64,000 bases of DNA, taken from IMG/VR virus record IMGVR_UViG_3300031998_000001, positions 173,064 to 237,063 of that record; one strand, given 5' to 3'. The notes under the pieces are model-generated. The model was not told the origin of the DNA. It did no database searches and saw only the letters and a program-made list of their open reading frames with translations. Below, piece by piece: positions 18,529 through 60,806 of the stretch. Every line of letters starts with the position of its first letter. Positions within the stretch are counted from its first letter, which is position 1. The translations under genes were made by a program, and so were the position numbers. This DNA comes from a virus (lineage: Duplodnaviria; Heunggongvirae; Uroviricota; Caudoviricetes).

Positions 18529-18644
18529 ATGGCAAAAAAAACGATGACTTTATGAAGCAGACATATTCTTGCCGACAGCATTCGCTGTGCGGGGGCAGGC
18601 TTGCAGTCGAGCACTACTGGGGCAAACAAGAGCGAATGATATAA
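18529..18644 (+). pseudogene. frameshifted truncated copy of the 5' end of gene 19045
   Basis: With an A8 run corrected to A9 it reads MAKKNDDFMKQTYSCRQHSLC versus MIKDDEFMKQTYACRQHRLC at 19045. Confidence 0.65.
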
Positions 18645-18647
18645 ATA
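18640..18647 (+). promoter_or_regulatory. T4-type late promoter TATAAATA followed by (TATAA)n
   Basis: Exact octamer 36 nt upstream of ATG 18676. Confidence 0.7.
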
Positions 18648-18675
18648 TAATATAATATAATATAATTTAACTGAT

Positions 18676-19041
18676 ATGACACACATAAAGAAAATAAACG
18701 AAATGATGCACAAGGATTTCAGCGAAGTTCGTTCGCTTCTGGACGGAGATGATTTTTCGGTTATTGTCGTCGAAGCCAAGGGAAACACCACATATAAGGC
18801 TGGCGACATTATTGAAACGGTTTATGAATTTGTTTACGACTGCAAGGAAATGACTGAAACCTGCAACGGCACTGCCGAAATTTCTGGTGATGACGATTTG
18901 GCTTATAATATGTGTATAACCGACGAAAACGATAATGTGTACGCAAGCATTATGTTCAGGCTTGTGTTCTTTGACCCAGAATCCGTAGCAACGATTCAGG
19001 ATTTTTACGATAGCGTGGAGTCGGACGATAATCCGTTTTAG
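18676..19041 (+). CDS. HIKRINE-tagged acidic protein (candidate internal virion protein)
   Basis: Starts MTHIKKINEM; late promoter upstream. Confidence 0.65.
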   Translation: MTHIKKINEMMHKDFSEVRSLLDGDDFSVIVVEAKGNTTYKAGDIIETVYEFVYDCKEMTETCNGTAEISGDDDLAYNMCITDENDNVYASIMFRLVFFDPESVATIQDFYDSVESDDNPF

Positions 19042-19044
19042 GCG

Positions 19045-19275
19045 ATGATAAAGGACGATGAATTTATGAAGCAGACATACGCCTGCCGACAGCACAGGCT
19101 TTGCAAGGGCTGGGTCGTGGTCGAATACTATCTGGACAGGGAGGATGTGAACATACTTCCGAAAGTTGGCTTGGAATACAGGGGGAACAAGTGGCGCAGG
19201 GGCATAGCCCTGACGCTCGACTTCCTCAATGTCGGCGCGAGCGTGTGCATAATGCTACGGAGGAAAGGCAAGTGA
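19045..19275 (+). CDS. hypothetical protein
   Basis: Intact counterpart of remnant 18529. Confidence 0.55.
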   Translation: MIKDDEFMKQTYACRQHRLCKGWVVVEYYLDREDVNILPKVGLEYRGNKWRRGIALTLDFLNVGASVCIMLRRKGK

Positions 19276-19843
19276 ACCCGCTTGTCGAGGACTACCTGAA
19301 GGCAAGGCGCGGGGGCGGTGGGGAAATCCCGCCTTCTCCGCTTGAACGGCTCGGCTATGAACGGGACGCAAGCAAGTTGTGTACAAGCACGACCAGAGCG
19401 GAAGTGTTTGTTAGGTATGATATGCTGGAAAACAAATTTATAAGTTACTTTATATGAAGATAATAGTCAGGCATTTTGACGAGAAGGGCTACGAGAGGGA
19501 CTTGCGCGAGGCGAAATTGAGCCTGTATGGAAAGCGGTTCAACACGGACGGGCGCAAGGTGTTGGAAACATACGGGGAACTCGTATTCCCTATGCTGTCC
19601 CGCCCAGACTGCACGACACCGCCAGACGAGCGGGCGGACGCGGAATGGAGGAAGATAGAGGAGGACGCTATGACGCTTGTGGAGCAGGACAACTACATAA
19701 CGGATGTCGAATATGACTATCTCGGCACGGCTCTCGACAAGGACGGGAGCATAACGCTCATAGGCGTAAGCGAGGATGGAACGCTCGAAAAGATAAGGTA
19801 CGACAAGGACGACAGGAGCGTGCATATACGGATTGTCAAATAA

Positions 19844-19914
19844 TTTTCTGAAATTATAATAAATAGCCTATATATTAGTGTCGGAAGGAAACATTAGGAC
19901 TTAAAGATATGGAC
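19844..19914 (+). repeat. 71-bp perfect direct repeat containing promoter copy 5 (19848-19876) and start codon
   Basis: Identical to 49208-49278. Confidence 0.9.
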
Positions 19915-20658
19915 AAGGTAAAGGTAAGTGAAGATGTAAAGAGACTTGACGACAAGATAGCCGCCAACTCGTTCTACAGTGCCCAAGCACAGGACACATT
20001 TTATATTGACAGCAATATATTTGAAAAGCAAAAGCCAACACTTGAACCCACCGACCTTATGATAGGTGATATGGTGGAGCACGATGGCAAGGTAATGAAA
20101 GTAATCGGCATCACCCCCAGTGGCGAAAGTAAAGGCTGGAAGATAGGGCTGGAATACAAGCACAACGCTTGCATTGCTGACATATCGGAGATACACCCAG
20201 TTGAACTCACAGATGGGATACTCAAGCAAATTGCGCAGTGGGACGACGACAACAACCGCTATCTCATCGGAGGATTGTGGGAGATAAGGATTGTAAACAA
20301 CCGAATAGTTCACGATACAATATTCCTCCCGACGCTCGGCTCGCTCCAGCACCTGATGAGATTGTACGGAGTGGAAATCAACTTTAATGAAAAATAACGG
20401 TTATGGAGAAGTTCATAGAAATCAAGAACACGGTGTTCTACAAGAACGGGGTTGCGGAAAGCAACAGGGAAATTAACTGCTGCATCAACGCGGGGTTCAT
20501 AATGACATACCACCACCTTGCCGACAGGTTCACGGACGAGTGGGTGCTTTATCTTGCGGACGGTCGCACCGCCCACACCAAGACGGATGTGGACAAACTG
20601 TTGAGATGTGAAACCAAGACAGCCTTGAACGAATAGGATTGGCATAACACGAATAACT

Positions 20659-21117
20659 ATGGCACACATCAAGAGAGTAAACGAAATGGCGCACAAGAGC
20701 AGGCGCAGGCTCACATACGAGGCGAACAAGACCGCGAAGTGCGGGGAAACGATATTGTGCCCCGTATGCGGAAAGGAGTTCGTGAAGAGGCAGTATTCGC
20801 AGGCGTTCTGCTGCGGCAAGTGCAAGGACGCTTTCTGGAACGCCCGTGGCGACAGGCATTCCGACCCGAACTACCACGCCAAGTACAATATGGAGCATCC
20901 CGAAAGATATGCGGGGCTTATCGGTCTTGGCGTAACAAGGGACGAAAGGGAATACTACGAGGCTATGCACGCATACGCCACCGACCCAGACTTCCGCGAA
21001 TGGCTGCGGCAGTCGGCGGACAACTTTGATGTTGACTGGGATTCCCACTGCGCAAGGAACACCATCGGGCAGGAATACCAGAACTATCTTGATGACAGAC
21101 TTAAATCGGACTTTTAG
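20659..21117 (+). CDS. HIKRINE-tagged Zn-finger protein
   Basis: Starts MAHIKRVNEMA; CPVC...CCGKC. Confidence 0.6.
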   Translation: MAHIKRVNEMAHKSRRRLTYEANKTAKCGETILCPVCGKEFVKRQYSQAFCCGKCKDAFWNARGDRHSDPNYHAKYNMEHPERYAGLIGLGVTRDEREYYEAMHAYATDPDFREWLRQSADNFDVDWDSHCARNTIGQEYQNYLDDRLKSDF

Positions 21118-21653: not shown

Positions 21654-21719
21654 AACTTGACAACGCATATTGCCGTATGGACAACGCAAAACATAAAAAT
21701 ATAAATAATATGTGGACGC

Positions 21720-21820
21720 AAGTGCAGATGTGTCCGAAAGCAATTATAAAGACATTTGGAGGATTCCATCCGCAAAGGCTCTCTGCACTTTATGCCGAGC
21801 GGACAGTCCTCCGCTTTTTA
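21720..21820 (+). ncRNA. structured 5' leader RNA with terminator-like hairpin (unassigned)
   Basis: 9-bp stem aagtgcaga/tctgcactt, inner gtgtc/gacat stem, agcgga/tccgct hairpin plus U-tract, alternative pairings. Confidence 0.5.
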
Positions 21821-21829
21821 TTGGACGAA

Positions 21830-23077
21830 ATGTTAAGGGCGTTGAAGATACGGCTATATCCGAACAAGGAACAGCAGACCAAGATAAACAAGGTCTTGGG
21901 CTGTTATCGGTTCGTCTATAACCAGTGCCTTGAACGGAAGATGAAAGCATATAAGGATGAATGTACTTCGTTAGGTCTGACCGACCTGTCCAAGTGGTTT
22001 CACGGTGTTTTGATTAAAGACGAGCGATACGCTTGGTTGAAACAGCAGAACACGAAGGTTATGAAGCAGTCTATAAGGCAGATGCTTACGGCATATACCA
22101 ACTTCTTCAAGTTGCATAGGGGCTTCCCGAAGTTCAAGTCAAAGCACGACACTGTTCTTTCTGCTTTATTCCCCATCGAGGCTATATCGTCCCGAAACAC
22201 ATTCGACGATAGAAAGATTACATTAACCAAAGATTTAAAAGACATTCGTTTCAGGTGCTCCAAGTTGTATTACGCACGGCTTAAAGCATATAAGGACAAT
22301 ATACGAAGTGCTACCCTGTCGAGAACCAAGACGGGCAAGTATTTCTTGTCAATCCTTATGGACATTCCAGACGATGAACTAATCAGGTTCAAGCGGACTG
22401 GAAACAGCGTAGGCATAGACTTGGGCGTAAAGGATTTCGTGATTACATCCGATGGCGAGGTGTTCGAGAACAGGCATTTTCTCAAGAAAACCGAGCACAG
22501 GATAAAGGTCTTGCAGAAGCAACTGTACAGGAAGGTCAAGGGTTCTAACAACCGTATGAAGCAAAGGATACGGCTTGCAACCGCCTATGAACGGCTGGCG
22601 AACCAGCGCGAAGCCTACATACACTATGTCGTTAACTCGTTGCTGAAGGATTACGATACGGTGTTTATGGAAGACCTTAATGTGCGCGGTATGTTGAAGA
22701 ACCATAGACTTGCGAAGGCTATCGCCGAGGTCGGCTTGTACAGGTTCAGAAGCATATTGACCGACAAGGCTATGGTTAACGGCAAGCAGGTCGTGTTCGT
22801 TGACAGGTTCTATCCGTCATCGAAGACCTGCTCCGTATGCGAATACATTAAACGGGACTTGACGCTTGCCGATAGGGAGTGGACTTGTCCCGAATGCGGA
22901 ACGCACCACGACCGAGATGTCAACGCATCAATAAACATCCTGAACGAAGGTAAACGGATAATAGGCAGCCGTACTGCCGAATTTAAGCCTGTGGACTGCC
23001 CGACTATGGATGACCGTTCAGCAATGAACCTAAAAAGTAGTGGCAGGGCGAAGCAGGAAAGAGAAACAGATGAATAG
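21830..23077 (+). CDS. tnpB: TnpB RNA-guided endonuclease
   Basis: ALKIRLYP HTH, RuvC-I GIDLGVKD, RuvC-II EDLNV, Zn finger CSVC/CPEC, RuvC-III DRDVNA; start at MLRAL. Confidence 0.92.
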   Translation: MLRALKIRLYPNKEQQTKINKVLGCYRFVYNQCLERKMKAYKDECTSLGLTDLSKWFHGVLIKDERYAWLKQQNTKVMKQSIRQMLTAYTNFFKLHRGFPKFKSKHDTVLSALFPIEAISSRNTFDDRKITLTKDLKDIRFRCSKLYYARLKAYKDNIRSATLSRTKTGKYFLSILMDIPDDELIRFKRTGNSVGIDLGVKDFVITSDGEVFENRHFLKKTEHRIKVLQKQLYRKVKGSNNRMKQRIRLATAYERLANQREAYIHYVVNSLLKDYDTVFMEDLNVRGMLKNHRLAKAIAEVGLYRFRSILTDKAMVNGKQVVFVDRFYPSSKTCSVCEYIKRDLTLADREWTCPECGTHHDRDVNASINILNEGKRIIGSRTAEFKPVDCPTMDDRSAMNLKSSGRAKQERETDE

Positions 23078-24209: not shown

Positions 24210-25265
24210 ATGTTCAGCAAGGAGATAGAGGACAGGCTGATATACGAGTACATAAGGGGTTCGCACTGCCACGGCACGAACACCCCGACAAGCGATGTGG
24301 ATATGGGCGGGGTGTTCGTCTCGCCCACGGAGAAACTCATATCGCTCAACCCCGAAGCCGACACGGTGGAGGACAGCAGGAACGACTGCGTGGCGTACGA
24401 ACTGGGCAAATACTGCCGACTTCTCCTGAAAGCCAACCCGACTATGCTCGAATCGCTCTTCGTTGACGACAAGTTCATAGTCAGGATGCACCCGTCCTTC
24501 ACACTGATAAGGGACATACGCGACACATTCGTAACGCAGGACTGCTTCAACTCGTTCACGGGCTATGCGTACTCGCAGATTTCAAAGGCTCGCGGGCTGA
24601 ACAAGAAGATTGTCAACCCAGTCGAAAGGAGGCTCGGAGTGCTCGACTTCTGCTACACATTCAGCGGGGGAGGAAGCGTCCCTATGTCCGAGTGGCTCTC
24701 GGCTGCGGGGCTTTCGCGGGAAAGGTGCGGGCTTGTGGCGATAGACCATATGCACGATGCCTATGCCGTGTACTACTGCACGGACGAAGTGAATGTGTTC
24801 AGGGGGATAGCCGACGGGGACAGCGACGAGGTTCGGCTGACTTCGGTCCCGAAGGGGCTTGAGCCGATTTGCTATATGACATACAACAAGTCTGGCTACT
24901 CCTTGCATTGCAAGGAATACAGGGAATATCAGGACTGGGTGAGAAAGCGCAACCAGCAGAGGTATGAGTCGAACTTGGACAAGAACTATGACAGCAAGAA
25001 CATATCGGAGTGCTTCCGCCTGTTGAGGATGGGCGCGGAGATAGCGCGTGGAGAGGGCGTGATAGTCAACCGCGCTGGTCGGGATGCCGAGTTCCTGCTC
25101 GACATAAAGGCTCACAAGTACGAGTACGACGAGATAATGCGTATGCTCGAAGCGGAGTTTGCCGAAATGAAGAAGTATATGGAAACCACCACGCTCCCGA
25201 AGCACGCAGACCAGAAGATTGTCAACGATGTGCTGCTGAAGATAAGGCGCGAACTCGGACAGTGA
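24210..25265 (+). CDS. Pol-beta superfamily nucleotidyltransferase
   Basis: GSHCHGTNTPTSDVDMGGVF, YELGKYCRLLLKANP. Confidence 0.85.
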   Translation: MFSKEIEDRLIYEYIRGSHCHGTNTPTSDVDMGGVFVSPTEKLISLNPEADTVEDSRNDCVAYELGKYCRLLLKANPTMLESLFVDDKFIVRMHPSFTLIRDIRDTFVTQDCFNSFTGYAYSQISKARGLNKKIVNPVERRLGVLDFCYTFSGGGSVPMSEWLSAAGLSRERCGLVAIDHMHDAYAVYYCTDEVNVFRGIADGDSDEVRLTSVPKGLEPICYMTYNKSGYSLHCKEYREYQDWVRKRNQQRYESNLDKNYDSKNISECFRLLRMGAEIARGEGVIVNRAGRDAEFLLDIKAHKYEYDEIMRMLEAEFAEMKKYMETTTLPKHADQKIVNDVLLKIRRELGQ

Positions 25266-25273
25266 TATAAATA
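25266..25273 (+). promoter_or_regulatory. T4-type late promoter TATAAATA
   Basis: 31 nt upstream of ATG 25297. Confidence 0.7.
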
Positions 25274-25296
25274 ATCCATAATAAATCCGAGACACT

Positions 25297-25590
25297 ATGG
25301 TACATATCAGACGAATAAACGAAACCGTAAATATGAACAAGAAATACTTTGTAGGCGCAAGAGTGTTCATCACACAGGAAGTGATAGACTACATCAAAAG
25401 ATACGAGAAGAACTTCCCGCCCGACATATTCGACAGGGTAAAGGTCGGTATGCTGTGGGATGTGAAGGATATGTATATCTCTGGCGGGGAGGTTATGATA
25501 CAGATTAACAACGGTGACGACTGGGTGTTCGTGCCAGCGTACCTGTTCTACAGCGACAGTTATGTCGAATACCTGCGGACTATATGCTGA
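25297..25590 (+). CDS. HIKRINE-tagged small protein
   Basis: Starts MVHIRRINE. Confidence 0.6.
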   Translation: MVHIRRINETVNMNKKYFVGARVFITQEVIDYIKRYEKNFPPDIFDRVKVGMLWDVKDMYISGGEVMIQINNGDDWVFVPAYLFYSDSYVEYLRTIC

Positions 25591-26539: not shown

Positions 26540-27340
26540 ATGAAAGAAACAAAATTGAAAGTAACATTCAGCCTGTCCGATGCCCAGACCAAAGGCGGGT
26601 GCAAATATGATGTCGCGAGTATGAAGGACGCGCTGGAAAGATACAAGGAGAAACTCGGCGACGGTTGCACGGCGTTAGGCGAACTTGCGGACGCACCGTC
26701 CACGAACCCGATTTACGGAAGCAACCTCTTGTACGAGAACCTTGCCGTAAGTACGGCGAACGCCTCGCATATCGTGGAAAGCGTATCAATGGACGATGAC
26801 GGAAACCTGACTGGCACGATAAGGCTTCTTGACACCATAAATGGAAAACTCGCCTCCGATATGGTCGCCAAGGGCTTCAAGTTATGTATGATACCCCGTG
26901 CGCTCGGCATCCGCGAAGGCGACACATACAAGGTCGATACGATAGTTTCGTTCGACATAATGATAATGCCAGAAACACCGCACCAGAGCAAACGCAACGA
27001 ACCGCATCCGCTGGGCACTTGTTCGGAGTGCGCCTTCGGGCACTGGTTCGGTGACGGACTGTTCTGCGACTTCGGGTATGCAAAGGGCGATACCGCGCAG
27101 GCGCACGGGGCAAACCCGAACGGGCGTTGCGGGATGTTTCAGGGAATAGACGACAACTTCGAGGAGGACAAGATAGTGATTACGCTCCCCGCAACCGACA
27201 CATACGGGAAATATCACATCGACCCGCTGAAACCAGAGGGACGCGGACTTGCGTACCTGAAGGAGGACTTGTCCTACATACTCGGTTGCGGGCGGAACGA
27301 CATCAAGGTCGAGTTCAAGTCGAAAAGGGACAGACATTAA
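26540..27340 (+). CDS. T4 gp21-like prohead protease paralog, probably inactive, with Cys-rich C-terminal extension
   Basis: ALGELADAP (cf. ALGELNHP), ASHIV, IRLLDTINGKL, MIPRALG (cf. VSSRGLG), SFDI. Confidence 0.6.
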   Translation: MKETKLKVTFSLSDAQTKGGCKYDVASMKDALERYKEKLGDGCTALGELADAPSTNPIYGSNLLYENLAVSTANASHIVESVSMDDDGNLTGTIRLLDTINGKLASDMVAKGFKLCMIPRALGIREGDTYKVDTIVSFDIMIMPETPHQSKRNEPHPLGTCSECAFGHWFGDGLFCDFGYAKGDTAQAHGANPNGRCGMFQGIDDNFEEDKIVITLPATDTYGKYHIDPLKPEGRGLAYLKEDLSYILGCGRNDIKVEFKSKRDRH

Positions 27341-31561: not shown

Positions 31562-32011
31562 ATGGCGAAGATATTGAAAATTGACGAGATGCGCGGCACT
31601 GGGAAGTTCTGGATAACGGACTACTTCGACCTGAACGCCATACCGAAAGATGTACTTGCTTCAAAGTGCGTTGACTTCTCCTTTATGGCGAAAAACCAAG
31701 GCTACGGCAAGGAGATATTCGTGAACGGCGACGAGATACTCGCGGAGAAGAAATACTTTACCGCCACATACGAAACCGTGAAGGAAACGCTCCGAGCAAA
31801 GTACAAGTTCGATGACTGGCAGTTTGCGGAGGACAGCGTGGCTAACAATGTCAGGATAATAATATTGTTCGTTGACATCAAGCGCAACAAGGACATAATG
31901 CTTGCGGAAATGAAGTCGCTCGGCTGGAGCGAATCGTTCAGCGATGAAACCGTATATCAGGGCTTCCGCGTAGTGGCGATAAGTTTTTCACCTGTATCTG
32001 AAAATAAATAA
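31562..32011 (+). CDS. protein with tag-like N-terminus, paired with PRTase
   Basis: Starts MAKILKIDEM. Confidence 0.55.
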   Translation: MAKILKIDEMRGTGKFWITDYFDLNAIPKDVLASKCVDFSFMAKNQGYGKEIFVNGDEILAEKKYFTATYETVKETLRAKYKFDDWQFAEDSVANNVRIIILFVDIKRNKDIMLAEMKSLGWSESFSDETVYQGFRVVAISFSPVSENK

Positions 32012-32026
32012 GTTTTCCAATATATT
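31998..32026 (+). promoter_or_regulatory. CTGAAA-N17-TATATT promoter (copy 8)
   Basis: Strict motif upstream of 32048; the spacer contains AATAAATAAGTT, one mismatch from the late promoter. Confidence 0.7.
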
Positions 32027-32047
32027 ATTATAAAGCATATATGCCGT

Positions 32048-32938
32048 ATGGGAAATATTAAAAAATTTGATGAATTTGTAGGCAACGAGATGACACCAGA
32101 CGATGTTGTGGGCATTTTGGAGCATTTCTTCCTGAACGAAGGAATAGAAGTAAAATTGGACAGGCGTGTCGTTATGACGGACAAGCACGAAAAACTTGTC
32201 GATACATCCGTGGAAAATAACCCAAGCGTAATAACGGGGCTAATTCCGAATGTTGAGGTGTATTCGGTATTCAAGAGAAAGGAGGGCGATATAGGTGACG
32301 GAAACCCGTTGCTGTACGCTTTGAAGAATGAAAAGGGCTACGAGTTGGTAAACGCTATGAAAACAAAAAGCAGGGTCGAGTACATAGTAAAGCAATTCTT
32401 TTTAAGGCACGGCAAGAAGGACATTACCATAATGGTTCCGTCAACCAACGAATTGAACGATTACTTTGCGAAGGTTGTAGCAAGACATTGCGTACACCCC
32501 ACATACATAGATGACATTCTGGTAAAGATGACAACGGAGGAAGTTGACGACTACATACAGAAGGAAGATTCTCCTTTCAAGCGTCACTACGGCAGGAGGT
32601 TCAACATTGCGTACAAGTATTTCAGAAGATGTTGCAAGGATATGAAAGGCGGAAAGTTCAAGTTCCACGCAATCGACGATATGGAGATGAGAGGTGTCAT
32701 AGAGCATACAATCAAGTTGCAGGACGAATACTGGGGCAACTACATTGATGCCTTCAACGGGAAGGATGTGATAATAGTGGACGACAGCATTACGCTCGGA
32801 AACACAATAGTCGAATCCTGCAAAATCATATCGGAATGCTACACGCCCAAAAGCATAACGGTACTGACATTGCTGTCTCCGTTGTATGCGGAGGACGGGG
32901 TTGCGCTTGCCGATTTAAAGATAAACAAAGACAACTAA
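32048..32938 (+). CDS. type I phosphoribosyltransferase-like protein with tag-like N-terminus
   Basis: PRPP-loop VIIVDDSITLGNT; starts MGNIKKFDEF. Confidence 0.7.
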   Translation: MGNIKKFDEFVGNEMTPDDVVGILEHFFLNEGIEVKLDRRVVMTDKHEKLVDTSVENNPSVITGLIPNVEVYSVFKRKEGDIGDGNPLLYALKNEKGYELVNAMKTKSRVEYIVKQFFLRHGKKDITIMVPSTNELNDYFAKVVARHCVHPTYIDDILVKMTTEEVDDYIQKEDSPFKRHYGRRFNIAYKYFRRCCKDMKGGKFKFHAIDDMEMRGVIEHTIKLQDEYWGNYIDAFNGKDVIIVDDSITLGNTIVESCKIISECYTPKSITVLTLLSPLYAEDGVALADLKINKDN

Positions 32939-39753: not shown

Positions 39754-39761
39754 TCAAGGAT

Positions 39762-40606: not shown

Positions 40607-40610
40607 GATT

Positions 40611-41009
40611 ATGACGAAAAAACAGAAACAACTGCTTGTAAAGGCACTCTGCGGATATTTGCCGTATGGCTTGAAGATATGCAAGGTGAAGCCGTCGTTC
40701 CTGAAGGAAGATGGCTTGCACATACAGGACGCACAGGGGATAGACCTTGTGCTGACGATAGTGCTCACCAACACATTCGCCCGCGTGGAAGATATGAAGC
40801 CGTACTTGCGACCGATGTCAAGTATGACCGAGAAGGAAAGGGCGAAATACCTTAAAGCCTGCGACAAGGAAACGGATGATGCGCTGGCGCAGCCGAGATA
40901 CAGCGGGGTTGACTGGCTTAACGAACACCATTTCGATTACCGTGGATTGATTGGAATGGGGCTTGCGCTGGAGGCGGAAGAAGGAATGTATGACAACAAA
41001 AACGAATAA
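40611..41009 (+). CDS. LPYG family protein, array gene 12
   Basis: ALCGYLPYGL...MKPYLRPMSSMTEKE...DWLNEHHFDYRGLIGMGLALEAEEGMY. Confidence 0.85.
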   Translation: MTKKQKQLLVKALCGYLPYGLKICKVKPSFLKEDGLHIQDAQGIDLVLTIVLTNTFARVEDMKPYLRPMSSMTEKERAKYLKACDKETDDALAQPRYSGVDWLNEHHFDYRGLIGMGLALEAEEGMYDNKNE

Positions 41010-49822: not shown

Positions 49823-50380
49823 ATGGCAGACATTGAAATCTATACGATGGGGCATTACAGGGAGGTCACCCTGTTCGATTGCGTCGGCTTCCCAGAGGAG
49901 TGCCAGCAGAGAATGTGGAAGAGGCTGGAAAAGAAATATCTCCCGTCCCTCCCGATTGAGGACGAAGGCTTGATGGCACTCAAGGAACTCAACCCAGAAG
50001 CGGTGATGTACCGATACAGGAAGGGCGATGCCCTGAAAGAAGTCCGAGACCTCGTGTACTCCGACAAGCCGAGCGACGACGAGGTTACGGTTATGCTCAC
50101 GGCGATGAGGGGGACATTCATAGAGAGGGAACTCTTGCAGGAGGTCGCAGACCTCTACCGCACGCTTGATGTATCGACTGGTCAGATGGCGGAGCAGGGG
50201 GACATACTCGAAGAGATATACAACAGTTGCAACGACATACTTGGGGTGTTCATATCAATACCAGTCATATCGGCTGATGTGCTCGAACACAGGGACGGGA
50301 TGGTATATGTCCCAGAATGGTGCAAGGGCGTGGGCGAACGCTTCAAGGAAATAAGGGGAACTGATGAAACAGACAATTAG
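49823..50380 (+). CDS. hypothetical protein behind a TATAAATA promoter (49790-49797)
   Basis: ORF overlaps the start of the methyltransferase gene, suggesting co-transcription. Confidence 0.55.
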   Translation: MADIEIYTMGHYREVTLFDCVGFPEECQQRMWKRLEKKYLPSLPIEDEGLMALKELNPEAVMYRYRKGDALKEVRDLVYSDKPSDDEVTVMLTAMRGTFIERELLQEVADLYRTLDVSTGQMAEQGDILEEIYNSCNDILGVFISIPVISADVLEHRDGMVYVPEWCKGVGERFKEIRGTDETDN

Positions 50381-51674
50381 GCTCATAGACCTTTTCGCTG
50401 GAATGGGCGGAATAAGGCTCGGAACGGAGCAGGCACTCTCGGAGAGGGGGCTTGCCTCCGAGTGCGTGCTTACATCCGAAATCAAGCCGTATGCGGTCGA
50501 TGTGCTGTTGCAGAACCACCCGAACGAAACGGTGGCAGGCGACATAACCGAGATACCAGCCGAGAGCATACCCGACTTCGACATACTCTGCGCGGGCTTC
50601 CCCTGCCAGCCGTTCTCTTCGGCGGGCAATCGGGACGGGTTCGCCGACACGAGGGGGACTATGTTCTTCCACATAGAAAGGATACTTCGGGAGAAGAAGC
50701 CGAGAGGGTTCGTGCTTGAAAATGTCGAGGGGCTTGCGAACCACGACGGCGGACGGACGCTCTCCATAATACTCGGCAACCTGAAGGCACTCGGCTACGC
50801 GGTGTCGTGGCGGGTGCTGAACGCTTCGGACTTCGGCGTACCGCAGGAAAGGAGGCGCACATACATAGCGGGTGCGAGGGCTGACATATCGAAGGCTGGT
50901 TGCCCCGATATGTTCATATTCCCGAAAAGGCGTTCACGACTCTCCGACATACTCGAAAGCGGGCTTCCCTGCGTTGACACCCCGTTCACGAGGAGGCTTC
51001 TCGAAAAGTACCCGATTGCCGAACTCGCTGGCAAGTCGGTAAAGGACAGGCGGGGCGGAAAGGACAACATACACAGTTGGGACTTGGAGATAAAGGGGAG
51101 CGTGTCAGCAAGGCAGAAGGAACTTCTCGGTGCGATTATGACGCAGAGGAGAAAGGACAAGTGGGCTGACGAGGCTGGTGTAGAACCGATGGACGGTATG
51201 CCCCTGACCGAAAAGCAGATACGGACATTCTTCGACGACGAGAACCTTTCTGAAATGCTCGCCGACCTTACGGAGAAGGGCTATATGAGGTACGAGCATC
51301 CGAAGAGGCTCGTGGCGGAAACAGCGACCGCGCCAGACGGAAGGGAAGTGACCACGACAAGAAGGGAGTATGACACGGAAAAGGAGAAGGGCTACAACAT
51401 AGTGGCTGGCAAACTCTCGTTCGAGGTCAACGAGATACTCAACCCGAACGGGACTGCCCCCACACTCACGGCAACGGACACGCGGAGCATATTCGTCCCA
51501 GACGGGAACGGGATACGGAGACTCACCCTTCGGGAGTGCCTTCGGCTGTTCGGATACCCAGACGACTTCAAGTTCGATGTCGGGGAGAACGACGGCTACG
51601 ACCTGCTCGGCAACACCGTGGCTGTACCAGTAGTGAAGGCTGTTGCACAACGGCTTATTGAAAGAATATTCTAA
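50364..51674 (+). CDS. orphan C5 cytosine DNA methyltransferase
   Basis: DLFAGMGG (I), GFPCQPFS (IV), ENVEGL (VI), QERRRTY (VIII), RECLRLFGYP (IX), LGNTV (X). Confidence 0.95.
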   Translation: MKQTIRLIDLFAGMGGIRLGTEQALSERGLASECVLTSEIKPYAVDVLLQNHPNETVAGDITEIPAESIPDFDILCAGFPCQPFSSAGNRDGFADTRGTMFFHIERILREKKPRGFVLENVEGLANHDGGRTLSIILGNLKALGYAVSWRVLNASDFGVPQERRRTYIAGARADISKAGCPDMFIFPKRRSRLSDILESGLPCVDTPFTRRLLEKYPIAELAGKSVKDRRGGKDNIHSWDLEIKGSVSARQKELLGAIMTQRRKDKWADEAGVEPMDGMPLTEKQIRTFFDDENLSEMLADLTEKGYMRYEHPKRLVAETATAPDGREVTTTRREYDTEKEKGYNIVAGKLSFEVNEILNPNGTAPTLTATDTRSIFVPDGNGIRRLTLRECLRLFGYPDDFKFDVGENDGYDLLGNTVAVPVVKAVAQRLIERIF

Positions 51675-51731
51675 ACTTGATACATTTTTGGTATTGTAGA
51701 TATAAATAAATCAGTATATATTTGAATTATT

Positions 51732-52649
51732 ATGATACGCATTAAAAGGATAGATGACTTCATCAACGAAAACCATAATATCGACAACAAGAGAACATTA
51801 AACGAAAATAAACCCGTTGATGCAAATATACGAATTTTTAACGATATGCCGTCAGATAACACAAATGACTTTCGTCCTGTGCAATTAGGATTGGATGGTG
51901 TACGAAAAATAATGAAAAGACCAAAAGTTAAAAAAATATTAGAAAAATATAAATGTGTTGCTGACTGTTCACCTTCCTGCGGTTGGGTAGAATTAGTATT
52001 ATTGTTTGATAATAAAGAAAATGATATTGAGAAAGTATATGAGTCATTTCAAAATATGTTGCACGAACTTGATTTGAATACAGAACTGTATATTGATACC
52101 GAAATATCCAATAACATAGCATTCAAAGGAAAGAAAGTATATCAGTGCTTTCATCACGAATATAAGGATATGGAATATTATATTAAACACGGATACGAAT
52201 GGTCAAGTTATAAAGGATTGGAAAACATTATAAACGATTTCACAAATATACACGGAAAAGAAAATACAAATTGCTTATATTGCTGTTGGGCAGAAAAATC
52301 ACCTAATAAGAAAGAATATGGATTCAGCGATACGGATATACTTAACTACGCAAAATCCTATATTGAAAAACGATACCCGAAGTTTGAAATTGAATTATTA
52401 AATGGAAAAAGAAGTTATGATACAAAATCCTATAATGCGTTTGTCGTAAGTTATAAAGGATATAAAGACAAATTCGGAGGTCAGGCTGGGAGTTTTGTTG
52501 TCGAATTTATAAAAGGTGGAACGGAAGATGAAATGAATACTTACAGATTAAGTGTGCGTGCGCCGTTGGGTGGTGAATATAAAGATAAAATTAACATTGA
52601 TAACTGGAAAGAAACAATAAACGAAGCAATAGACTGGCTTTGCAATTAG
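51732..52649 (+). CDS. HIKRINE-tagged AT-rich protein
   Basis: Starts MIRIKRIDDFINE; TATAAATA at 51701, 31 nt upstream. Confidence 0.65.
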   Translation: MIRIKRIDDFINENHNIDNKRTLNENKPVDANIRIFNDMPSDNTNDFRPVQLGLDGVRKIMKRPKVKKILEKYKCVADCSPSCGWVELVLLFDNKENDIEKVYESFQNMLHELDLNTELYIDTEISNNIAFKGKKVYQCFHHEYKDMEYYIKHGYEWSSYKGLENIINDFTNIHGKENTNCLYCCWAEKSPNKKEYGFSDTDILNYAKSYIEKRYPKFEIELLNGKRSYDTKSYNAFVVSYKGYKDKFGGQAGSFVVEFIKGGTEDEMNTYRLSVRAPLGGEYKDKINIDNWKETINEAIDWLCN

Positions 52650-52654
52650 TCAAT

Positions 52655-53455
52655 ATGATGGAAAGCGAAATAAGGAAGATACAGTATGTGAGCGACCTGC
52701 ACTTGGAGTTTAAGACGAACTCGGCATACATAAAGGACAACCCGCTCGAAGTTGCGGGCGATGTGCTTCTCATTGCGGGCGACACGGCATACCTCGACAA
52801 CCCGATGTCAAATCAGGACTACTACTCGAAGCACGAGTTCTGGGACTGGGCGAGCGAGAACTACAGGGAGGTGGTGGTGTGCTTCGGCAACCACGACTTC
52901 TACGGCTACTACGACCTCTCGGCGATGAAGGACGGGTATGCGAAGCAGATAAGACCGAATGTAACCGCATACTACAACGGTGTGGCGCATCTCGGAAACG
53001 CCGATGTCATAGTATCTACGCTCTGGGCGCACATAGACGATGACAAGGCGTATATGACGGAGAGGAGCGTAAACGACTTCTACCGCATAATGTACGGCAA
53101 CCACAGGCTTACAGCCGAGAACTTCAATGCCGAGCACGAGAAGTGCGTGAAGTTCATAGAGAATGCCGTCAGGGAAAGCACGGCAAGAACGAAGATAATA
53201 CTCACGCACCACGTCCCTACGCCCCTCTGCACTGCGGAGGAGTTCAAGGGGAGCACGATAAACGGGGCTTTCACGGCAGACCTTACCGATATGATTGCCG
53301 AACTCGGTGCGGACTGGTGGGTGTACGGGCACTCCCACAGGAACATAGATGTAACGGTCGGCAACACGAAGGTCGTGTCCAACCAACTCGGCTATGTCGG
53401 GTACGGGGAGCATATCAAGAACGGATTTTCCAGAAATGCAATCATAGAAATTTAG
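52655..53455 (+). CDS. calcineurin-like metallophosphoesterase
   Basis: SDLHLE, IAGD, GNHD, THH, GHSH. Confidence 0.9.
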   Translation: MMESEIRKIQYVSDLHLEFKTNSAYIKDNPLEVAGDVLLIAGDTAYLDNPMSNQDYYSKHEFWDWASENYREVVVCFGNHDFYGYYDLSAMKDGYAKQIRPNVTAYYNGVAHLGNADVIVSTLWAHIDDDKAYMTERSVNDFYRIMYGNHRLTAENFNAEHEKCVKFIENAVRESTARTKIILTHHVPTPLCTAEEFKGSTINGAFTADLTDMIAELGADWWVYGHSHRNIDVTVGNTKVVSNQLGYVGYGEHIKNGFSRNAIIEI

Positions 53456-56360: not shown

Positions 56361-57221
56361 ATGGCTTTTGATTGCGGAAACATAGAGCAGCAGGAGTGCC
56401 TCAACGAGTTCATCGGGCGGGTGCAGAAGTATATGACGCTTAACTGCCAGATGCCCTTCACCCTGCCAGTGCCGAGCATAGCCCTCATAACGGACGAGAG
56501 CAAAAAGTGGTTCTACAACCACTATGACGACTCGGTGGAGGAGCAGTACATAGCGTGCGACCCGAAGGTGTTGCACAGCGACGAGTTCAGGCTCGGACTC
56601 ACCAACAGGGGCAATATGGACGGGAACGCGATAAGGAAGGATGCGACCAAGACGGACAGGGGCGTGATAGTTATGCCCGACAATGTGTTCAGCGTAATCC
56701 GTGTCTATCAGATTGGCAAGTTCAGCGGTGAGGCTGGCTGGGGCGGTATGTTCAATGTCGATGCCGACAACATAGACTTCGGCGTAAGGCGTATGTTCTC
56801 GTCCCAGATGTACTACTCTGGGGTAGGTCAGTCAGCAGACACCCTGCTGTGGTGGACTTGCAACTTGAGTTACTACGATATGGCTCGTTCAATGCTACAG
56901 GAGATGCACACATTCTCGTACAACCGCCTCACGCACAAGGTTCGCTTCGGGGGCGAACTCCCGACAAGGGCTGTGGTCTTTGAAGTCCTCACCACGATAG
57001 AGGACTGCCAGTTGTTTCAGGACGACCTGTTCTTCCGCTATGTCTGCGCACAATGTATGAGGCAGATAGAGAGGTTGCTCTCGACATTCAGTTTTTCGCT
57101 GCCGGGCAATGTGCAGATTAACACGAGCGTCTATACATCTTGGGGCGAGGCGGAACTTCAGGACATCAAGGAGGAAATCAAGCAGTCGAGAAGCAGTGTA
57201 AGTTACTTCTTCACGACATAG
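56361..57221 (+). CDS. T4 gp13-like neck protein
   Basis: MPDNVFSV; C-terminal LPGNVQIN...EAELQDIKEEIK resembles the gp13 LPGGV...E..L.EEL pattern. Confidence 0.65.
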   Translation: MAFDCGNIEQQECLNEFIGRVQKYMTLNCQMPFTLPVPSIALITDESKKWFYNHYDDSVEEQYIACDPKVLHSDEFRLGLTNRGNMDGNAIRKDATKTDRGVIVMPDNVFSVIRVYQIGKFSGEAGWGGMFNVDADNIDFGVRRMFSSQMYYSGVGQSADTLLWWTCNLSYYDMARSMLQEMHTFSYNRLTHKVRFGGELPTRAVVFEVLTTIEDCQLFQDDLFFRYVCAQCMRQIERLLSTFSFSLPGNVQINTSVYTSWGEAELQDIKEEIKQSRSSVSYFFTT

Positions 57222-57260
57222 GCTATAAATATAAATAAGTTGTATATAATTCGATTTGTT

Positions 57261-57668
57261 ATGGTACACATTAAAAGAATAAACGAAATGGCAAGCGCAA
57301 CCCCGCGCGTAAAGGGGCAAAGGGAAAGCATAGAACCGTATCTTGTGGACGGCGCGGTATTGGTGATTGAAAATGCAACCACCGAACGCAATCGGACAGA
57401 CGAGAGCATTACAACGGTTGACACCCGCAACAGGTTTGGTGTTGCATTTATGTATGACAGAAATACTATGTGCTTTTATAATGATTTTGATGAAAACTTG
57501 GAGTGCAGTGGTATTAGCGAACACAATGAATGGCTTACTGGCTATATAAGAAGAATTACAAGGGTGTATGCACCGCACGAAGATATGAGCAAAGAACAAG
57601 TTGTAAAGACACAAGAACCCGTTTGGGTAAATCCAGACAATTCGCCGCTCGTACCGCCCAAGCCGTAG
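57261..57668 (+). CDS. HIKRINE-tagged protein
   Basis: Starts MVHIKRINEMA; tandem TATAAATA at 57224 and 57230 (31 nt upstream). Confidence 0.7.
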   Translation: MVHIKRINEMASATPRVKGQRESIEPYLVDGAVLVIENATTERNRTDESITTVDTRNRFGVAFMYDRNTMCFYNDFDENLECSGISEHNEWLTGYIRRITRVYAPHEDMSKEQVVKTQEPVWVNPDNSPLVPPKP

Positions 57669-57730
57669 CATAAGGTCAAGATGCATTTGAATTTAACGAT
57701 ATATGTAGGATATATATAATTTGATTGAAT

Positions 57731-58006
57731 ATGGCACACATTAAGAGAGTTGACGAGATGGCAGGCGCGAATATGTCTGCTTCGGACACAAAAAGGCGCG
57801 GTGTTGAACTGGCTAAACGCGCAAAGACATACTACGCTGGCGGGGATATGAAGAACGCTGGTCGGGTATGGAACGAGATATGCGACCTGTACAAAGGCGT
57901 GACGGGCATAGACGCTATGCGGGATATGCACGCGATTATGACTATGTTCACGGAAGACGAGGTATGCGGGATAACAAATTACCTGATGTCAAAGCAGTCG
58001 TACTAA
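57731..58006 (+). CDS. HIKRINE-tagged small helical protein
   Basis: Starts MAHIKRVDEMA; degenerate TATATGTA at 57700 (31 nt upstream). Confidence 0.65.
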   Translation: MAHIKRVDEMAGANMSASDTKRRGVELAKRAKTYYAGGDMKNAGRVWNEICDLYKGVTGIDAMRDMHAIMTMFTEDEVCGITNYLMSKQSY

Positions 58007-58010
58007 CGGT

Positions 58011-58613
58011 ATGAAGAACTACAGCATAAGGGAGAGCGTGGAAAAACTTTTCAAGGAGTACAAGAACCCGCAGATGATAGGGGCTGTGCTCTGGAAGGAC
58101 ATACAAGCCAATTATCCGCCGAATAAGGGCATTTTGCTACCGGGCAAACTCTATGTGCTCGGATACAAGAAAGACAGCAAAAAACTATACGATACGCGCC
58201 CGTACATACTTTGCTTCGGCGCGTGCGATGATGCCGACCCGACAGTCGTGTACGGGCTGGCTTGGCACTACATACCCCAGAAGATAAGGTGGCAGTTGGG
58301 CGAGTACATATTCGAGATGTTCGCTGGGAAGATTTCATCGGAGATAGAGAAGTATCCCGACATCGCGGACGCTCCCAAGCAGGACTTCGTAAAGGACTGC
58401 ATAAAGGAGACGGTGGTCCCCGCCCTCAAGAAAGTGAACCTGACGGGTGCGATACACAAGTACGATATGAAGAATATGATATACTGCTACGCCATAAACT
58501 ACAACAGGTTTCACTGGGTATTGTGCGACGAGAGCAACACATTCACCAACGGGACGATAGCCGATGCCCAGAAGTCGTTTCTCGAAAAGATGGCACGACC
58601 AGCGAAAAAATGA
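58011..58613 (+). CDS. T4 gp2-like DNA end protector protein
   Basis: PGKLYVLGY...YDTRPYI...GLAWHYIP..IR. Confidence 0.7.
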   Translation: MKNYSIRESVEKLFKEYKNPQMIGAVLWKDIQANYPPNKGILLPGKLYVLGYKKDSKKLYDTRPYILCFGACDDADPTVVYGLAWHYIPQKIRWQLGEYIFEMFAGKISSEIEKYPDIADAPKQDFVKDCIKETVVPALKKVNLTGAIHKYDMKNMIYCYAINYNRFHWVLCDESNTFTNGTIADAQKSFLEKMARPAKK

Positions 58614-58628
58614 CAGCACGGGCGATAT

Positions 58629-58761
58629 GAAATATAAATAAGTTATATATAACCAGACTGGATATGACACACATAATGAACTTCAGCGAATATACATCGC
58701 CAGCGGGCGCGATAACCGAATCCCTTACGCAGAGGTCTGCGATGATAAGGTTCAACAAGGC
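58629..58761 (+). repeat. 133-bp inverted repeat, left copy (late promoter plus first about 33 codons)
   Basis: Reverse complement of 60674-60806, with a 41-bp perfect core. Confidence 0.9.
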
Positions 58762-59659
58762 GTTCAGGATGTTCAGGGATTCCCTCGTGAAAGGTGACAA
58801 GGATATGTTCGTCTCGTCTATGGAGGCTCTCTCGAAGTTCCTTGAGGACTTGTACGGAGAGGTGCGTAACGAGAGGGAATGCAAGTGGAGCATTAAAACA
58901 TTTTTCTGGACAAGGGAGTATGAGTTCAACAGCAAAGGAAATATCATCAAGCAACCCGGTACGACCCTTAATTCGTTCAGTGCTTCTCCGATATGCAATT
59001 TCAATTATTATACGACAAACGGCTGGACAGTTTATGATGATAAGAACCATAAAGTTCCGTCCATTACATTTCGCTTTGAGTGGTGCGGGCTGGAAAAAAC
59101 CTCAAGCACTTATATGCTTTCTGGACATACGGTTTCCGTTACAGGGTACATTGACTGCTACAAGCAACAAAAATGTCATCAGGAAGATTTTTTCAAGGAT
59201 GTCGAAAGTCAGTTTATCAAACTGATAAAAACTGAAACCGAGCAAGCAAAGGCGGCTGGTGCGTTCGGGGAGGAAACGCTCAAGAGATACAATATGGTCG
59301 GTGTGACGGACTATGTTGGCTGGGTTGCCAAAAATGCGGTAGCGATATTGAAGTCCAACGGTCTTTATGACACCAGCAATTTCTATTCTGGCATTTCGCT
59401 GAACGATGTCGAATGTTATTTCTGGACTGGCGGACTGAAGGGGCTTAACGCCGACGGCATTACCTATTATGTCGGCGGGGACAGCACCGACGAGGAAGGC
59501 ATAATACCGTACAGCGATTGGAGGTCGGTGTCGAGATACCGCAAGTATTGCCCTCACGCCGAAGTTTACTGCGACATAGACTACGACAAGAAGCAGGAGT
59601 TCAGCAAGAAGATTTATGACTACATACTCAACTTGCTTAAAGAAGGAAAGTTGAAATAA
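58664..59659 (+). CDS. tagged protein, N-terminus shared with 60771(-)
   Basis: MTHIMNFSEYTSPAGAITESLTQRSA; TATAAATA 31 nt upstream. Confidence 0.7.
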   Translation: MTHIMNFSEYTSPAGAITESLTQRSAMIRFNKAFRMFRDSLVKGDKDMFVSSMEALSKFLEDLYGEVRNERECKWSIKTFFWTREYEFNSKGNIIKQPGTTLNSFSASPICNFNYYTTNGWTVYDDKNHKVPSITFRFEWCGLEKTSSTYMLSGHTVSVTGYIDCYKQQKCHQEDFFKDVESQFIKLIKTETEQAKAAGAFGEETLKRYNMVGVTDYVGWVAKNAVAILKSNGLYDTSNFYSGISLNDVECYFWTGGLKGLNADGITYYVGGDSTDEEGIIPYSDWRSVSRYRKYCPHAEVYCDIDYDKKQEFSKKIYDYILNLLKEGKLK

Positions 59660-59671
59660 CCGCAACAGGCA

Positions 59672-59727
59672 TAAAACAAACATCCCCCTTCGCTTATGAA
59701 CAAACGAGGGGGATGTTCTTTTTTTTT
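59672..59727. terminator. bidirectional terminator at the strand switch
   Basis: acatccccc..cg / cga.gggggatgt hairpin with flanking A-rich and T9 tracts between convergent genes. Confidence 0.8.
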
Positions 59728-59739
59728 CTGGTCGGCGGG

Positions 59740-60771
59740 CTAACTGCGTTTCGGAAAACTAACCGTCCACTTTTTTGTCGTGTCGTACTGCATTAACTTG
59801 TGACCGTTCTCGTCAATCTCATACTGGTTGGTGCTTACTGGGTCGCATATAAAATATGTAGGGGTGTCGCCCTTATAGCCATCGCTGGCGTATTCCACCC
59901 AATTTTTAAGGACGAGCCTGCCGTCGGTTAAATCGAGTATGTTGTACTTTCCGTTCTTCTTTACCCAGACGGTGTGCCTTCTGTCAGAAGGTGTCATACC
60001 GCCGTCGAACCACATATCCGTGGCATATTCGTTTTTCTTACAGTTATAATATGTGAGCATATTGTCAACCCTGACGCAAGTAATCCCGTTGCGATTGGGG
60101 TGCTTGTACGCATAGTCGAACACTTCCGTCCAGTAACTCTTGTTAGGAATGCTGTCGAGTCTTGCCAGTATGTCATAGAACTTTTGCGGAAGCCTGTCTT
60201 TCTTTGGCGTTTTGTAATTTTTCGACGGTCTTTGTGCGGGTATGAGTTCTATTTTCGTCCTTTCATATACAATCCTGTCGAACTGCTCCGTTATGCTGTC
60301 AAAAAGAACTTCTGGCTTGTCCTTGTCACATCTGATGTCCGATTTAACCTGAAATAGATATTCGCCACCCCGCCACTCAAACCAGAAATAAATCTTTGGC
60401 GCAACATCATCGCCATTGTAACTTTTTGTCGTGAGGGTATTGAAATCCGTTACTGGATATGTATCAAACACAATAGTGTCGATACGATGAGGTTTGCTGC
60501 CGACATTATATATATGCTCGTCTTCGTGCCAGCCAAAATAAACTTTTATGAAGCAGTCAATCTTCTTGCATTTCGTTTCATAAACATCTTCAAGCAAATC
60601 CGAAAAACTACCGATTGCCTTGTCAAACATATTCGTATCACCCTTCTCAAGAGAATGCTTCAATCCGTCCATTGCCCTGTCGAACCTCATCTTTGCAGAC
60701 CTCTGCGTAAGGGATTCGGTTATCGCGCCCGCTGGTGCTGTGTATTCGCTGAAGTTCATTATGTGTGTCAT
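59740..60771 (-). CDS. tagged protein, N-terminus shared with 58664
   Basis: MTHIMNFSEYTAPAGAITESLTQRSA; TATAAATA at 60795-60802, 31 nt upstream. Confidence 0.7.
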   Translation of the reverse strand: MTHIMNFSEYTAPAGAITESLTQRSAKMRFDRAMDGLKHSLEKGDTNMFDKAIGSFSDLLEDVYETKCKKIDCFIKVYFGWHEDEHIYNVGSKPHRIDTIVFDTYPVTDFNTLTTKSYNGDDVAPKIYFWFEWRGGEYLFQVKSDIRCDKDKPEVLFDSITEQFDRIVYERTKIELIPAQRPSKNYKTPKKDRLPQKFYDILARLDSIPNKSYWTEVFDYAYKHPNRNGITCVRVDNMLTYYNCKKNEYATDMWFDGGMTPSDRRHTVWVKKNGKYNILDLTDGRLVLKNWVEYASDGYKGDTPTYFICDPVSTNQYEIDENGHKLMQYDTTKKWTVSFPKRS

Positions 60772-60806
60772 ATCCAATTCAATTATATATAACTTATTTA
60801 TATTTC
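60674..60806 (-). repeat. 133-bp inverted repeat, right copy
   Basis: See 58629-58761. Confidence 0.9.

Follow-up and report, generated by a model that had tools for sequence, protein, structure and literature searches.

A recurrent protein start in a rumen phage

Why should ten genes, most of them encoding proteins unrelated to one another, begin with the same short peptide? The question is raised by a stretch of 64,000 nucleotides (the window, in what follows) that corresponds to bases 173,064-237,063 of the IMG/VR record IMGVR_UViG_3300031998_000001, a 387,654-bp uncultured rumen phage with 49% G+C and a CheckV completeness of 93%. The original prediction for this locus was that the phage recruits new cargo into its capsid by placing genes behind a portable DNA module of about 60 bp, in which a late promoter, TATAAATA, precedes an N-terminal tag comparable to that of the T4 internal proteins. 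The tag part of this proposal is borne out by peptide-level conservation across 39 unrelated groups of proteins, by a hydrophobic-x-Glu motif within the tag, and by the presence of an S77 protease and a gp23-type capsid protein; the promoter-cassette part is not. Taking the sequence data together with the analogy to T4, we conclude that the peptide is probably a capsid-targeting propeptide of the T4 type, used at a much larger scale than in T4 itself.

Conservation of the tag as a peptide

All ten window genes translate as claimed from their predicted starts, and their first residues fit M-x-H-I-[KR]-[RK]-[ILV]-[DN]-E or a close variant of it. A position-specific score matrix built from strict tag matches was used to score the 4,451 ATG-initiated open reading frames (ORFs) of at least 50 aa in the whole genome. 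Forty-five starts score at least 18.7, the next best standing at 6.8; each of the 45 is one of the first two ATGs of its frame, and the matches that fall inside the window are exactly the ten genes named earlier. The consensus spans about ten residues, M-[VIAT]-H-I-[KR]-[RK]-[ILVF]-[DN]-E-[MF], in which the conserved positions are H3, I4, the basic residues 5-6, the hydrophobic residue 7, D/N 8, E9 and M/F 10, and there is a longer form, x-I-K-K-F-D-E-F-[IV]-N-E. Because starts shifted by one or two residues (e.g., MATHIKRLNEM, MDTHIKKVNEM and MYIKRLDEM) and T4-like starts on late genes (MIKTYREFNE, MVKRYSEFITE and MYIKHFEEFVNE) come on top of the 45, the real number of tagged genes would be about 55-60, roughly a tenth of the ~506 genes.

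With their first 14 residues removed, the 45 proteins (10,089 aa in all) fall into 39 groups that are unrelated by BLAST, six paralogous pairs being found among them. The description of the ten window proteins as unrelated therefore holds for most of them and is slightly overstated, since those starting at 58664 and at 60771 on the minus strand are paralogous (32% over 180 aa, E 4e-17). Membrane-like segments occur in none of the 45 tagged proteins versus 65 of 469 others, and the tagged proteins are hydrophilic and mostly acidic, with an isoelectric point (pI) below 6 in 32 of the 45.

The codons of the tag vary where its residues do not. The invariant Ile4 is encoded by ATT, ATC and ATA in 16, 15 and 14 genes, Glu9 by GAA and GAG in 24 and 16, and His3 by CAC and CAT in 26 and 9, and C-ending codons (CAC, AAC, GAC) are frequent. 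Since synonymous sites are randomised and the peptide is constant, selection, to judge from codon usage, targets the tag peptide and not the DNA. The tag would therefore not be recently copied DNA, and its codon usage disfavours both an element at the RNA or DNA level and the recent copying of a DNA cassette.

This bears directly on the idea that the conserved start is an mRNA-level element, for instance a translation-initiation enhancer for late mRNAs with short leaders. Such an element would fit the absence of Shine-Dalgarno sequences from this phage's genes, including the tagged ones, whose leaders measure only ~15-25 nt; it would also fit the loose consensus of the tagged late leaders (ATATAA...TTGAAT) and the A that ends the second tag codon in 38 of the 45 genes. 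However, the roughly equal use of synonymous codons at invariant residues, the abundance of C-ending codons and a conservation pattern that is that of a specific peptide all point away from it, as do the ~60 late genes that have the same promoter and leader type without the motif, so that we regard this explanation as very improbable.

A T4-type protease and its candidate substrates

The tag holds the type of site recognised by the T4 prohead protease, namely hydrophobic-x-Glu. The pattern [LIVFMY]-x-E occurs within the first 13 residues of 42 of the 45 tags, compared with 141 of 469 other proteins (30%), and the narrower [LI]-x-E in 32 of the 45 compared with 59 of the 469. The T4 record gives MKTYQEFIAE as the start of ipII and ipIII, and MKTFKEF as that of ipI. 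The long tag form KKFDEFINE is identical to T4 KTYQEFIAE at five of nine positions and has a Y/F replacement besides, the peptides being too short for statistics; the commonest tag form, HIKRIDEM, is less similar to MKTYQEFIAE than the long form is.

A protease of the corresponding family is encoded outside the window. The genome contains a single match to Peptidase_S77, the T4 gp21-type family (PF03420, 34.8 bits, above the family cut-off), located in a 686-aa ORF at genome positions 380818-382875 (locus L100). Its motifs LGELDHP and ISSRAAG, which bear the catalytic His and Ser, align to LGELNHP and VSSRGLG of T4 gp21. The C-terminal part of the same ORF is made of ~18 tandem 14-aa repeats with the consensus HSDYLAEQLEKTxN, each of them containing L-A-E, and this repeat domain looks like a fused scaffold built for chopping at T4-type sites. 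The major capsid protein belongs to the gp23 family (PF07068, E 9e-24), T4 gp23 itself giving a weak BLASTP match (E 8e-9), and carries L-N-E at residues 47-49. In the T4 record, gp23 has L-T-E at residue 65, and it is after this L-T-E that T4 gp23 is cut.

The window contains an untagged paralogue of the protease domain with a Cys-rich tail (26540..27340, plus strand; BLASTP 38% over 78 aa, E 2e-11). When this paralogue and the protease are aligned together with T4 gp21, the region of the His motif contains no His in the paralogue, and IPR replaces the SSR Ser motif. Speculatively, this dead protease may be a binder of tags or scaffold and may help to recognise or regulate the tags.

The tag as an addition to a pre-existing protein family

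The best view of how the tag relates to the protein behind it comes from the 296-aa product of the gene at 32048-32938 (plus strand; unit 31990..32938), which begins with MGNIKKFDE (MGNIKKFDEFVGNE). This protein has weak Pfam matches to phosphoribosyltransferases (PRTases), and its Atlas features reach 0.96 to PRTase clusters. Its AlphaFold model, with a predicted local distance difference test (pLDDT) of 87.8 and a poorly ordered tag region (pLDDT 51-66), retrieves HGPRT, ComF, PurF and ShosT in Foldseek; the modelled structure is thus that of a PRTase-fold enzyme. Its 98 homologues have a common core from E-G-I-D onwards and differ at their N-termini. In some of them the tag of this phage directly abuts the core (MEYIKKFDEFINE-GID), the protein at 32048 has the tag plus a native helix before the core, and many others have an N-terminal helix of 17-27 residues and no tag. 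One untagged homologue is chromosomal in a bacterium, with rpmB/rpmG on one side and dnaB on the other (locus L074, gene 10001-10861), and starts with a 27-residue helix, MAKQIIKLTESELKE...; as it is chromosomal, this type of N-terminal helix is not by itself a phage packaging tag. Further untagged homologues are found in other huge phages. With untagged homologues known from a bacterial chromosome as well as from other huge phages, the sequence comparison supports the conclusion that, for at least one family, the tag was attached to proteins that already existed.

On a 188-kb bacterial contig, an IS1595-family transposase gene is immediately followed by a PRTase gene starting with the tag-like MIYIEKFEEFIEE (locus L076, 9017-10813), an arrangement which suggests that insertion sequence (IS) elements may move tagged genes between phage and host.

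These observations have to be set against the proposal that the shared start is the relic of a single, fast-evolving multigene family that has kept only its first ten codons. The six paralogous pairs among the 45 tagged proteins would be expected if this were so, tandem paralogues do recombine at their shared 5' ends (see below), and the leaders of tagged late genes are modestly more alike (43% identity, compared with 34-36% in other late genes; permutation p<0.001). The 39 BLAST-unrelated groups speak against it, although PRTase is the one fold found behind the tag so far. In that family, moreover, the untagged bacterial and phage homologues point to a tag added later, and in the 152-aa cargo encoded at 20659 the matching PHROG families (phrog_8162, E 1.6e-15, and related ones) align only from residue 10, after the tag. 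Randomised synonymous sites under a constant peptide imply, in addition, selection on the peptide. Common descent of the tagged genes appears improbable to us on this evidence.

A general late-type promoter rather than a cassette

The motif TATAAATA occurs 12 times in the window, where 2.06 copies are expected, and none of 100 shuffles reached 12. As originally noted, five copies begin exactly 31 nt before an ATG (25266, 51701, 57230, 58633 and, on the minus strand, 60802), another is found 36 nt before an ATG at 18640, and a degenerate version with two mismatches, TATATGTA, takes the 31-nt position at 57700. The motif is a -10-type element without a -35 element and stands ahead of virion genes. 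Genome-wide there are 127 copies, 89 of which have an ORF of 40 aa or more starting 25-40 nt downstream. After removal of duplicates, this gives 93 late-type genes, comprising 24 with a strict tag, at least 8 with T4-like variants and ~60 untagged ones. The untagged set includes the protease-scaffold gene, with TATAAATA at 31 nt, and a sheath-like gene (weak Pfam match), with the motif at 33 nt; a copy also lies 152 nt upstream of the capsid gene. Because untagged genes of this kind carry the same arrangement, TATAAATA is, on the evidence of its genomic distribution, the general late-type promoter of the phage and not part of a dedicated cassette.

The idea of a fixed ~60-bp DNA module that joins promoter and tag is not supported in its original form. 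Of the 45 tagged genes, only 24 are preceded by an exact TATAAATA copy; within the window, three of the ten have another upstream context or none, and the synonymous sites of the tag are randomised. Nor is the 31-nt spacing a feature of tagged genes: it is the mode of a 25-40-nt range that is also seen in untagged late genes, the tagged late genes ranging from 29 to 37 nt.

A second promoter-like motif, ~45 nt long, consists of TTTTCTGAAAT, a gap of 10-12 nt and AGCCWATATATTAGTG, and is unlike the sigma-A consensus of Bacteroidota. About 20 full-length copies are present among 28 core-pattern matches in the genome, 25-60 nt before genes that are mostly small ORFs and members of a big paralogue family (described below). 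In the window its cores lie at ~1023, 6610, 19867, 30065, 32017, 38063, 41492, 49231 and 53483.

The proposed pathway and the evidence against it

The events that we favour would begin with the late transcription of most tagged genes from TATAAATA, with a short leader that lacks a Shine-Dalgarno sequence; the association with the motif is observed, and from it we infer the timing. During assembly of a T4-type prohead, the tag would then dock the pre-protein to the growing scaffold core. To judge from the motifs, the gp21-family protease would cut after hydrophobic-x-Glu, so that the tag would be removed, the capsid protein trimmed and the scaffold repeats chopped. The mature cargo would stay in the head with the DNA and enter the host at infection, by analogy with IPI-III and Alt of T4. 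In short, the tag would be an address in peptide form, acquired in evolution by proteins that already existed. A broader and more tentative version, to which we would not yet commit ourselves, is that this phage and its relatives load 50-60 soluble proteins, a tenth or so of their genes, including enzymes captured from hosts such as the ComF/ShosT-like PRTase, with the dead protease paralogue perhaps helping; an ADP-ribosyltransferase-like protein is possibly among this cargo.

A number of points weigh against a T4-type capsid-targeting function. Packaging, cleavage and injection are all steps that we infer from sequence and analogy. Three of the ten tagged genes in the window (20659, 31562 and 32048) have no late promoter, and that at 32048 sits behind the second, different conserved motif. 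No gp55 homologue was found, either by tblastn with T4 gp55 (nothing below E 4) or with the profiles phrog_234 and phrog_12791 (no match at E<=1), and a single generic Sigma70_r2 ORF is present, at ~269.2 kb of the genome; the equation of TATAAATA with the T4 gp55 promoter, as first proposed, is for this reason an analogy. The commonest tag form has its sole hydrophobic-x-Glu at residues 7-9, and in T4 the cut falls after the second hydrophobic-x-Glu site. The cargo is mostly acidic, whereas the internal proteins of T4 are basic. A tag-like start is also carried by the bacterial PRTase gene next to the IS1595 transposase. Finally, the E-G-I-D boundary of the PRTases is conserved in bacterial homologues as well and, for that reason, is not readable as a protease site; the candidate site [LI]-N-E-G-I-D was rejected because the chromosomal bacterial homologue shares this boundary.

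Several of these points would suit a tag that is the address for another site (tail, baseplate or neck), for a chaperone or for timed degradation, its likeness to the T4 signal being convergent. Some tagged genes lie behind the promoter-like motif that is not the late one, and the acidic cargo differs from T4 internal proteins; the catalytically dead protease paralogue could bind tags for another purpose, and a ClpP-family protease is listed in the gene table of a related huge phage. Against this, the tag co-occurs with an S77 protease here and in four of the five tag-bearing contigs tested, its long form looks like the T4 signal, it holds the protease site type, and tagged genes occur among those for head and neck. 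We consider an address of another kind unlikely, if the least unlikely of the alternatives, and retain the T4-type capsid-targeting propeptide as the probable function.

Turnover of tagged genes between strains

A sister strain (ENA contig gene table; DNA loci L071 and L072) is nearly identical to this phage across window positions 47.6-61 kb and differs in its tagged genes. According to the gene table, it lacks the 305-aa tagged gene at 51732, the methylase gene being directly followed there by the Metallophos gene. It also possesses an extra tagged paralogue of 317 aa just upstream of the 331-aa gene. In the alignment of this junction, the promoter and leader found in the window are those of the extra gene, and the coding sequence from the ATG on is that of the second gene, which places the crossover in the shared tag and N-terminal coding region of the two paralogues. 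The mapped junction, as the aligned sequences read, arose by unequal crossing-over, the two tandem paralogues having ~80 nt in common.

A different kind of event is suggested at 18640-19041, where a direct repeat of 81 nt brackets the tagged unit (18536-18616 and 19050-19130; 77% identical, 514-nt spacing) and duplicates the 5' end of the next gene. The repeat is consistent with a promoter-tag-cargo gene having been inserted as a whole; a search for strains in which the site of the 18676 unit is empty found none. The strain differences and the repeat-flanked unit therefore support a fast-changing set of cargo, in which tagged genes would come and go between strains, and not a fixed 60-bp module.

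A sister-strain contig of 2.4 kb (sample ERZ27257203; gene table) joins the genes that follow the window gene 19454 to a gp2-like gene on the opposite strand and is rearranged relative to this genome.

Distribution of the tag and the probable host

The capsid protein of the phage is 40% identical to that of an uncultured 462-kb phage and 30% identical to those of the Prevotella Lak megaphages, the nearest named relatives also including Tenacibaculum PTm1 (29%) and Sphingomonas PAU (27%). No match to cultured phages was obtained by megablast with window positions 50-62 kb, and a search for relatives with a 453-aa late protein found none.

The tag was sought more widely by means of a strict, 30-nt degenerate pattern, for which an estimated ~0.15 chance matches are expected in 596 Gb. 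In 596 Gb of bacterial genomes it was found on three contigs, two of which belong to metagenome-assembled genomes (MAGs) of rumen Bacteroidales, and TATAAATA lies upstream of the tag in one of these two. Since the phage-like bacterial contigs with the strict tag come only from rumen Bacteroidales MAGs, the host is probably a rumen Bacteroidales bacterium. Among viral contigs, eight stretches on seven rumen contigs match. An S77 match was detected in four of five tag-bearing viral contigs tested, the fifth being a 33% fragment. A relative with 55% capsid identity has MxHI[KM]RIDEM tags behind TATAAATA, and a second one at the same capsid identity has looser variants; as these sequences indicate, the tag drifts along the phage lineage.

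Tagged genes of the window and their neighbours

Pfam and PHROG searches with the ten window cargo proteins, and Pfam searches with ten further tagged proteins, returned almost nothing, the exceptions being the weak PRTase matches and some PHROGs related to zinc ribbons or HNH. The first tagged gene lies at 18676-19041 on the plus strand (121 aa, MTHIKKINEM; unit 18640..19041), with TATAAATA at 18640-18647, 36 nt before the ATG, and its cargo has no match in Pfam or PHROGs. The second (20659..21117, plus strand) encodes a Cys-rich small protein of 152 aa, MAHIKRVNEM, and has no promoter motif directly upstream; it is probably transcribed by read-through from the gene run that starts at 19909, ahead of which a second-class promoter-like motif is found at ~19867. 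On the same strand, a 97-aa gene (MVHIRRINET) starts at 25297 (unit 25266..25590), with TATAAATA at 25266-25273, 31 nt before the ATG.

At 31562..32011 (plus strand), the ATG of a 149-aa gene (MAKILKIDEM) lies 3 nt past the stop of the upstream ORF, and no promoter motif is present. Its cargo is homologous to the N-terminal half of the tagged protein encoded at genome position 144184 (30% over 128 aa, E 7e-13). For the latter protein, of 292 aa, phmmer against the PDB gave only weak Tpt1 matches (E 0.12), so that its assignment as an ADP-ribosyltransferase carries no weight here. The PRTase-fold gene described above follows at 32048; its second-class motif reads CTGAAA ... CCAATATATTA on the plus strand, with the core at ~32017-32027.

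The remaining five tagged genes are located between 51 and 61 kb. A 305-aa gene that begins with MIRIKRIDDFINE occupies 51732-52649 on the plus strand (unit 51701..52649), with TATAAATA at 51701-51708, 31 nt before the ATG; a paralogue of its cargo, 31% identical, is encoded at genome position 84971, and an Atlas search with the cargo gave nothing usable. Two further genes on the plus strand sit between those for a gp13-type neck adaptor and a gp2-type protein. The first (135 aa, MVHIKRINEM; 57261-57668, unit 57224..57668) is preceded by overlapping TATAAATA copies at 57224 and 57230, the second of which is 31 nt before the ATG, and the other (91 aa, MAHIKRVDEM; 57731-58006, unit 57700..58006) by the degenerate promoter TATATGTA, also at 31 nt. 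The neck gene, on the plus strand at 56361..57221, matches phrog_211 (E 1.1e-6) as a head-tail adaptor of the T4 gp13 type, and a precomputed Pfam match to Phage_T4_gp13 exists on a same-sized protein of a related strain. The DNA end protector of the T4 gp2 type, at 58011..58613 on the plus strand, matches phrog_429 (E 7e-9), its precomputed Pfam match to Phage_T4_gp2 being weak.

The last two tagged genes are paralogues that converge at a strand switch. On the plus strand, the 331-aa gene (MTHIMNFSEY) lies at 58664-59659 (unit 58633..59659), with TATAAATA at 58633-58640, and on the minus strand the 343-aa gene (MTHIMNFSE) runs from 60771 to 59740 (unit 59740..60802), with TATAAATA at 60802-60795, the motif beginning in both cases 31 nt before the ATG. 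In the model of the 331-aa cargo (mean pLDDT 59.6), residues 1-21 are disordered (pLDDT <30) and residues 22-195 confident; searches of the PDB and of AlphaFold clusters gave no credible fold match.

Other identifiable genes of the window encode an RlaP-family nucleotidyltransferase (24210-25265), a BspA-type leucine-rich-repeat protein with DUF7666 (29029-30036), a C5 cytosine DNA methylase (50364-51674) and a calcineurin-like phosphoesterase (52640-53455). A TnpB/IS605 OrfB gene (Pfam HTH_OrfB_IS605, OrfB_IS605 and Cas12f1-like_TNB) and, separately, a 463-aa ORF occupy 21677-23077 and 33033-34424. The 463-aa ORF has two copies in the genome and no Pfam match, and TATAAATA is found upstream of the TnpB/IS605 OrfB gene as well as of the copies of this ORF. 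Separate from the tag is a large family of untagged paralogues, many of them in tandem, that extends over 1625-48914 (e.g., at 3045, 3516, 14445, 35323, 39379-41009, 44779 and 46895) and whose members start with M-T-x-E-E-K-x-L-L-x-x-D-L-C-A-R-L-P-Y-G-V.

Relation to known systems and significance

The system would be of a known kind, that of the capsid-targeting sequence (CTS) and internal proteins of T4, here at a larger scale. As in T4, a peptide of ~10 residues stands at the N-terminus of unrelated proteins that look non-essential (PMC3012670, PMC9026906), the tag contains hydrophobic-x-Glu, and the phage encodes a protease of the gp21 family as well as a gp23-family capsid protein. According to the literature, the T4 CTS can be transferred to foreign proteins (PMC3012670). 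The Ip proteins number three in T4, and about ten have been reported across the T-even phages (PMC12373910). Unlike T4, the present phage has 45-60 tagged proteins, belongs to a distant clade and carries mostly acidic cargo that includes enzyme folds; its protease is fused to scaffold-like repeats, and no gp55 homologue was found.

A further likeness is with the polymorphic ip loci of T-even phages and the PeSL cassettes of RB49 and phi1, in which accessory genes are gained, lost or swapped among close relatives at short conserved 5' sequences (PMC2839356, PMC12373910). PeSLs are early sigma70-like promoters with stem-loops, ~100 bp in length (PMC2839356), whereas the DNA shared here is short and degenerate, conservation lies on the peptide, and the junction is between tandem paralogues. 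The phiKZ-like giants, e.g., SPN3US, likewise combine a giant phage with a T4-related prohead protease and x-x-Glu sites. Their propeptides are long and differ between proteins, and are not known to form one uniform decapeptide. Dozens of proteins, among them those of the inner body or ejected, are packed with the DNA by phiKZ-like phages, many of them trimmed at x-x-Glu (PMC5694885, PMC7411985, PMC10052503). No mention of capsid-targeting tags was found in those papers on jumbo or huge phages that could be searched. The present analysis contributes the codon usage within the tag, the statistics of the promoter, the junction between strains and the bacterial PRTase homologue that lacks the tag.

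Should the tag act as it does in T4, the proteins injected with the DNA of an uncultured 388-kb phage could be listed by a simple sequence rule, and these would be the first phage proteins met by the host. All three T4 internal proteins are anti-restriction factors (PMC12373910), and the ~50 ORFans per genome found behind the tag would provide a candidate set for counter-defence or host takeover in phages of rumen Bacteroidales. The loading mechanism of T4 would then be old, widespread and scalable, and, on the broader version given above, the N-terminal tag would offer a read-out, from sequence only, of injected proteins with some ten times the variety of those of T4.

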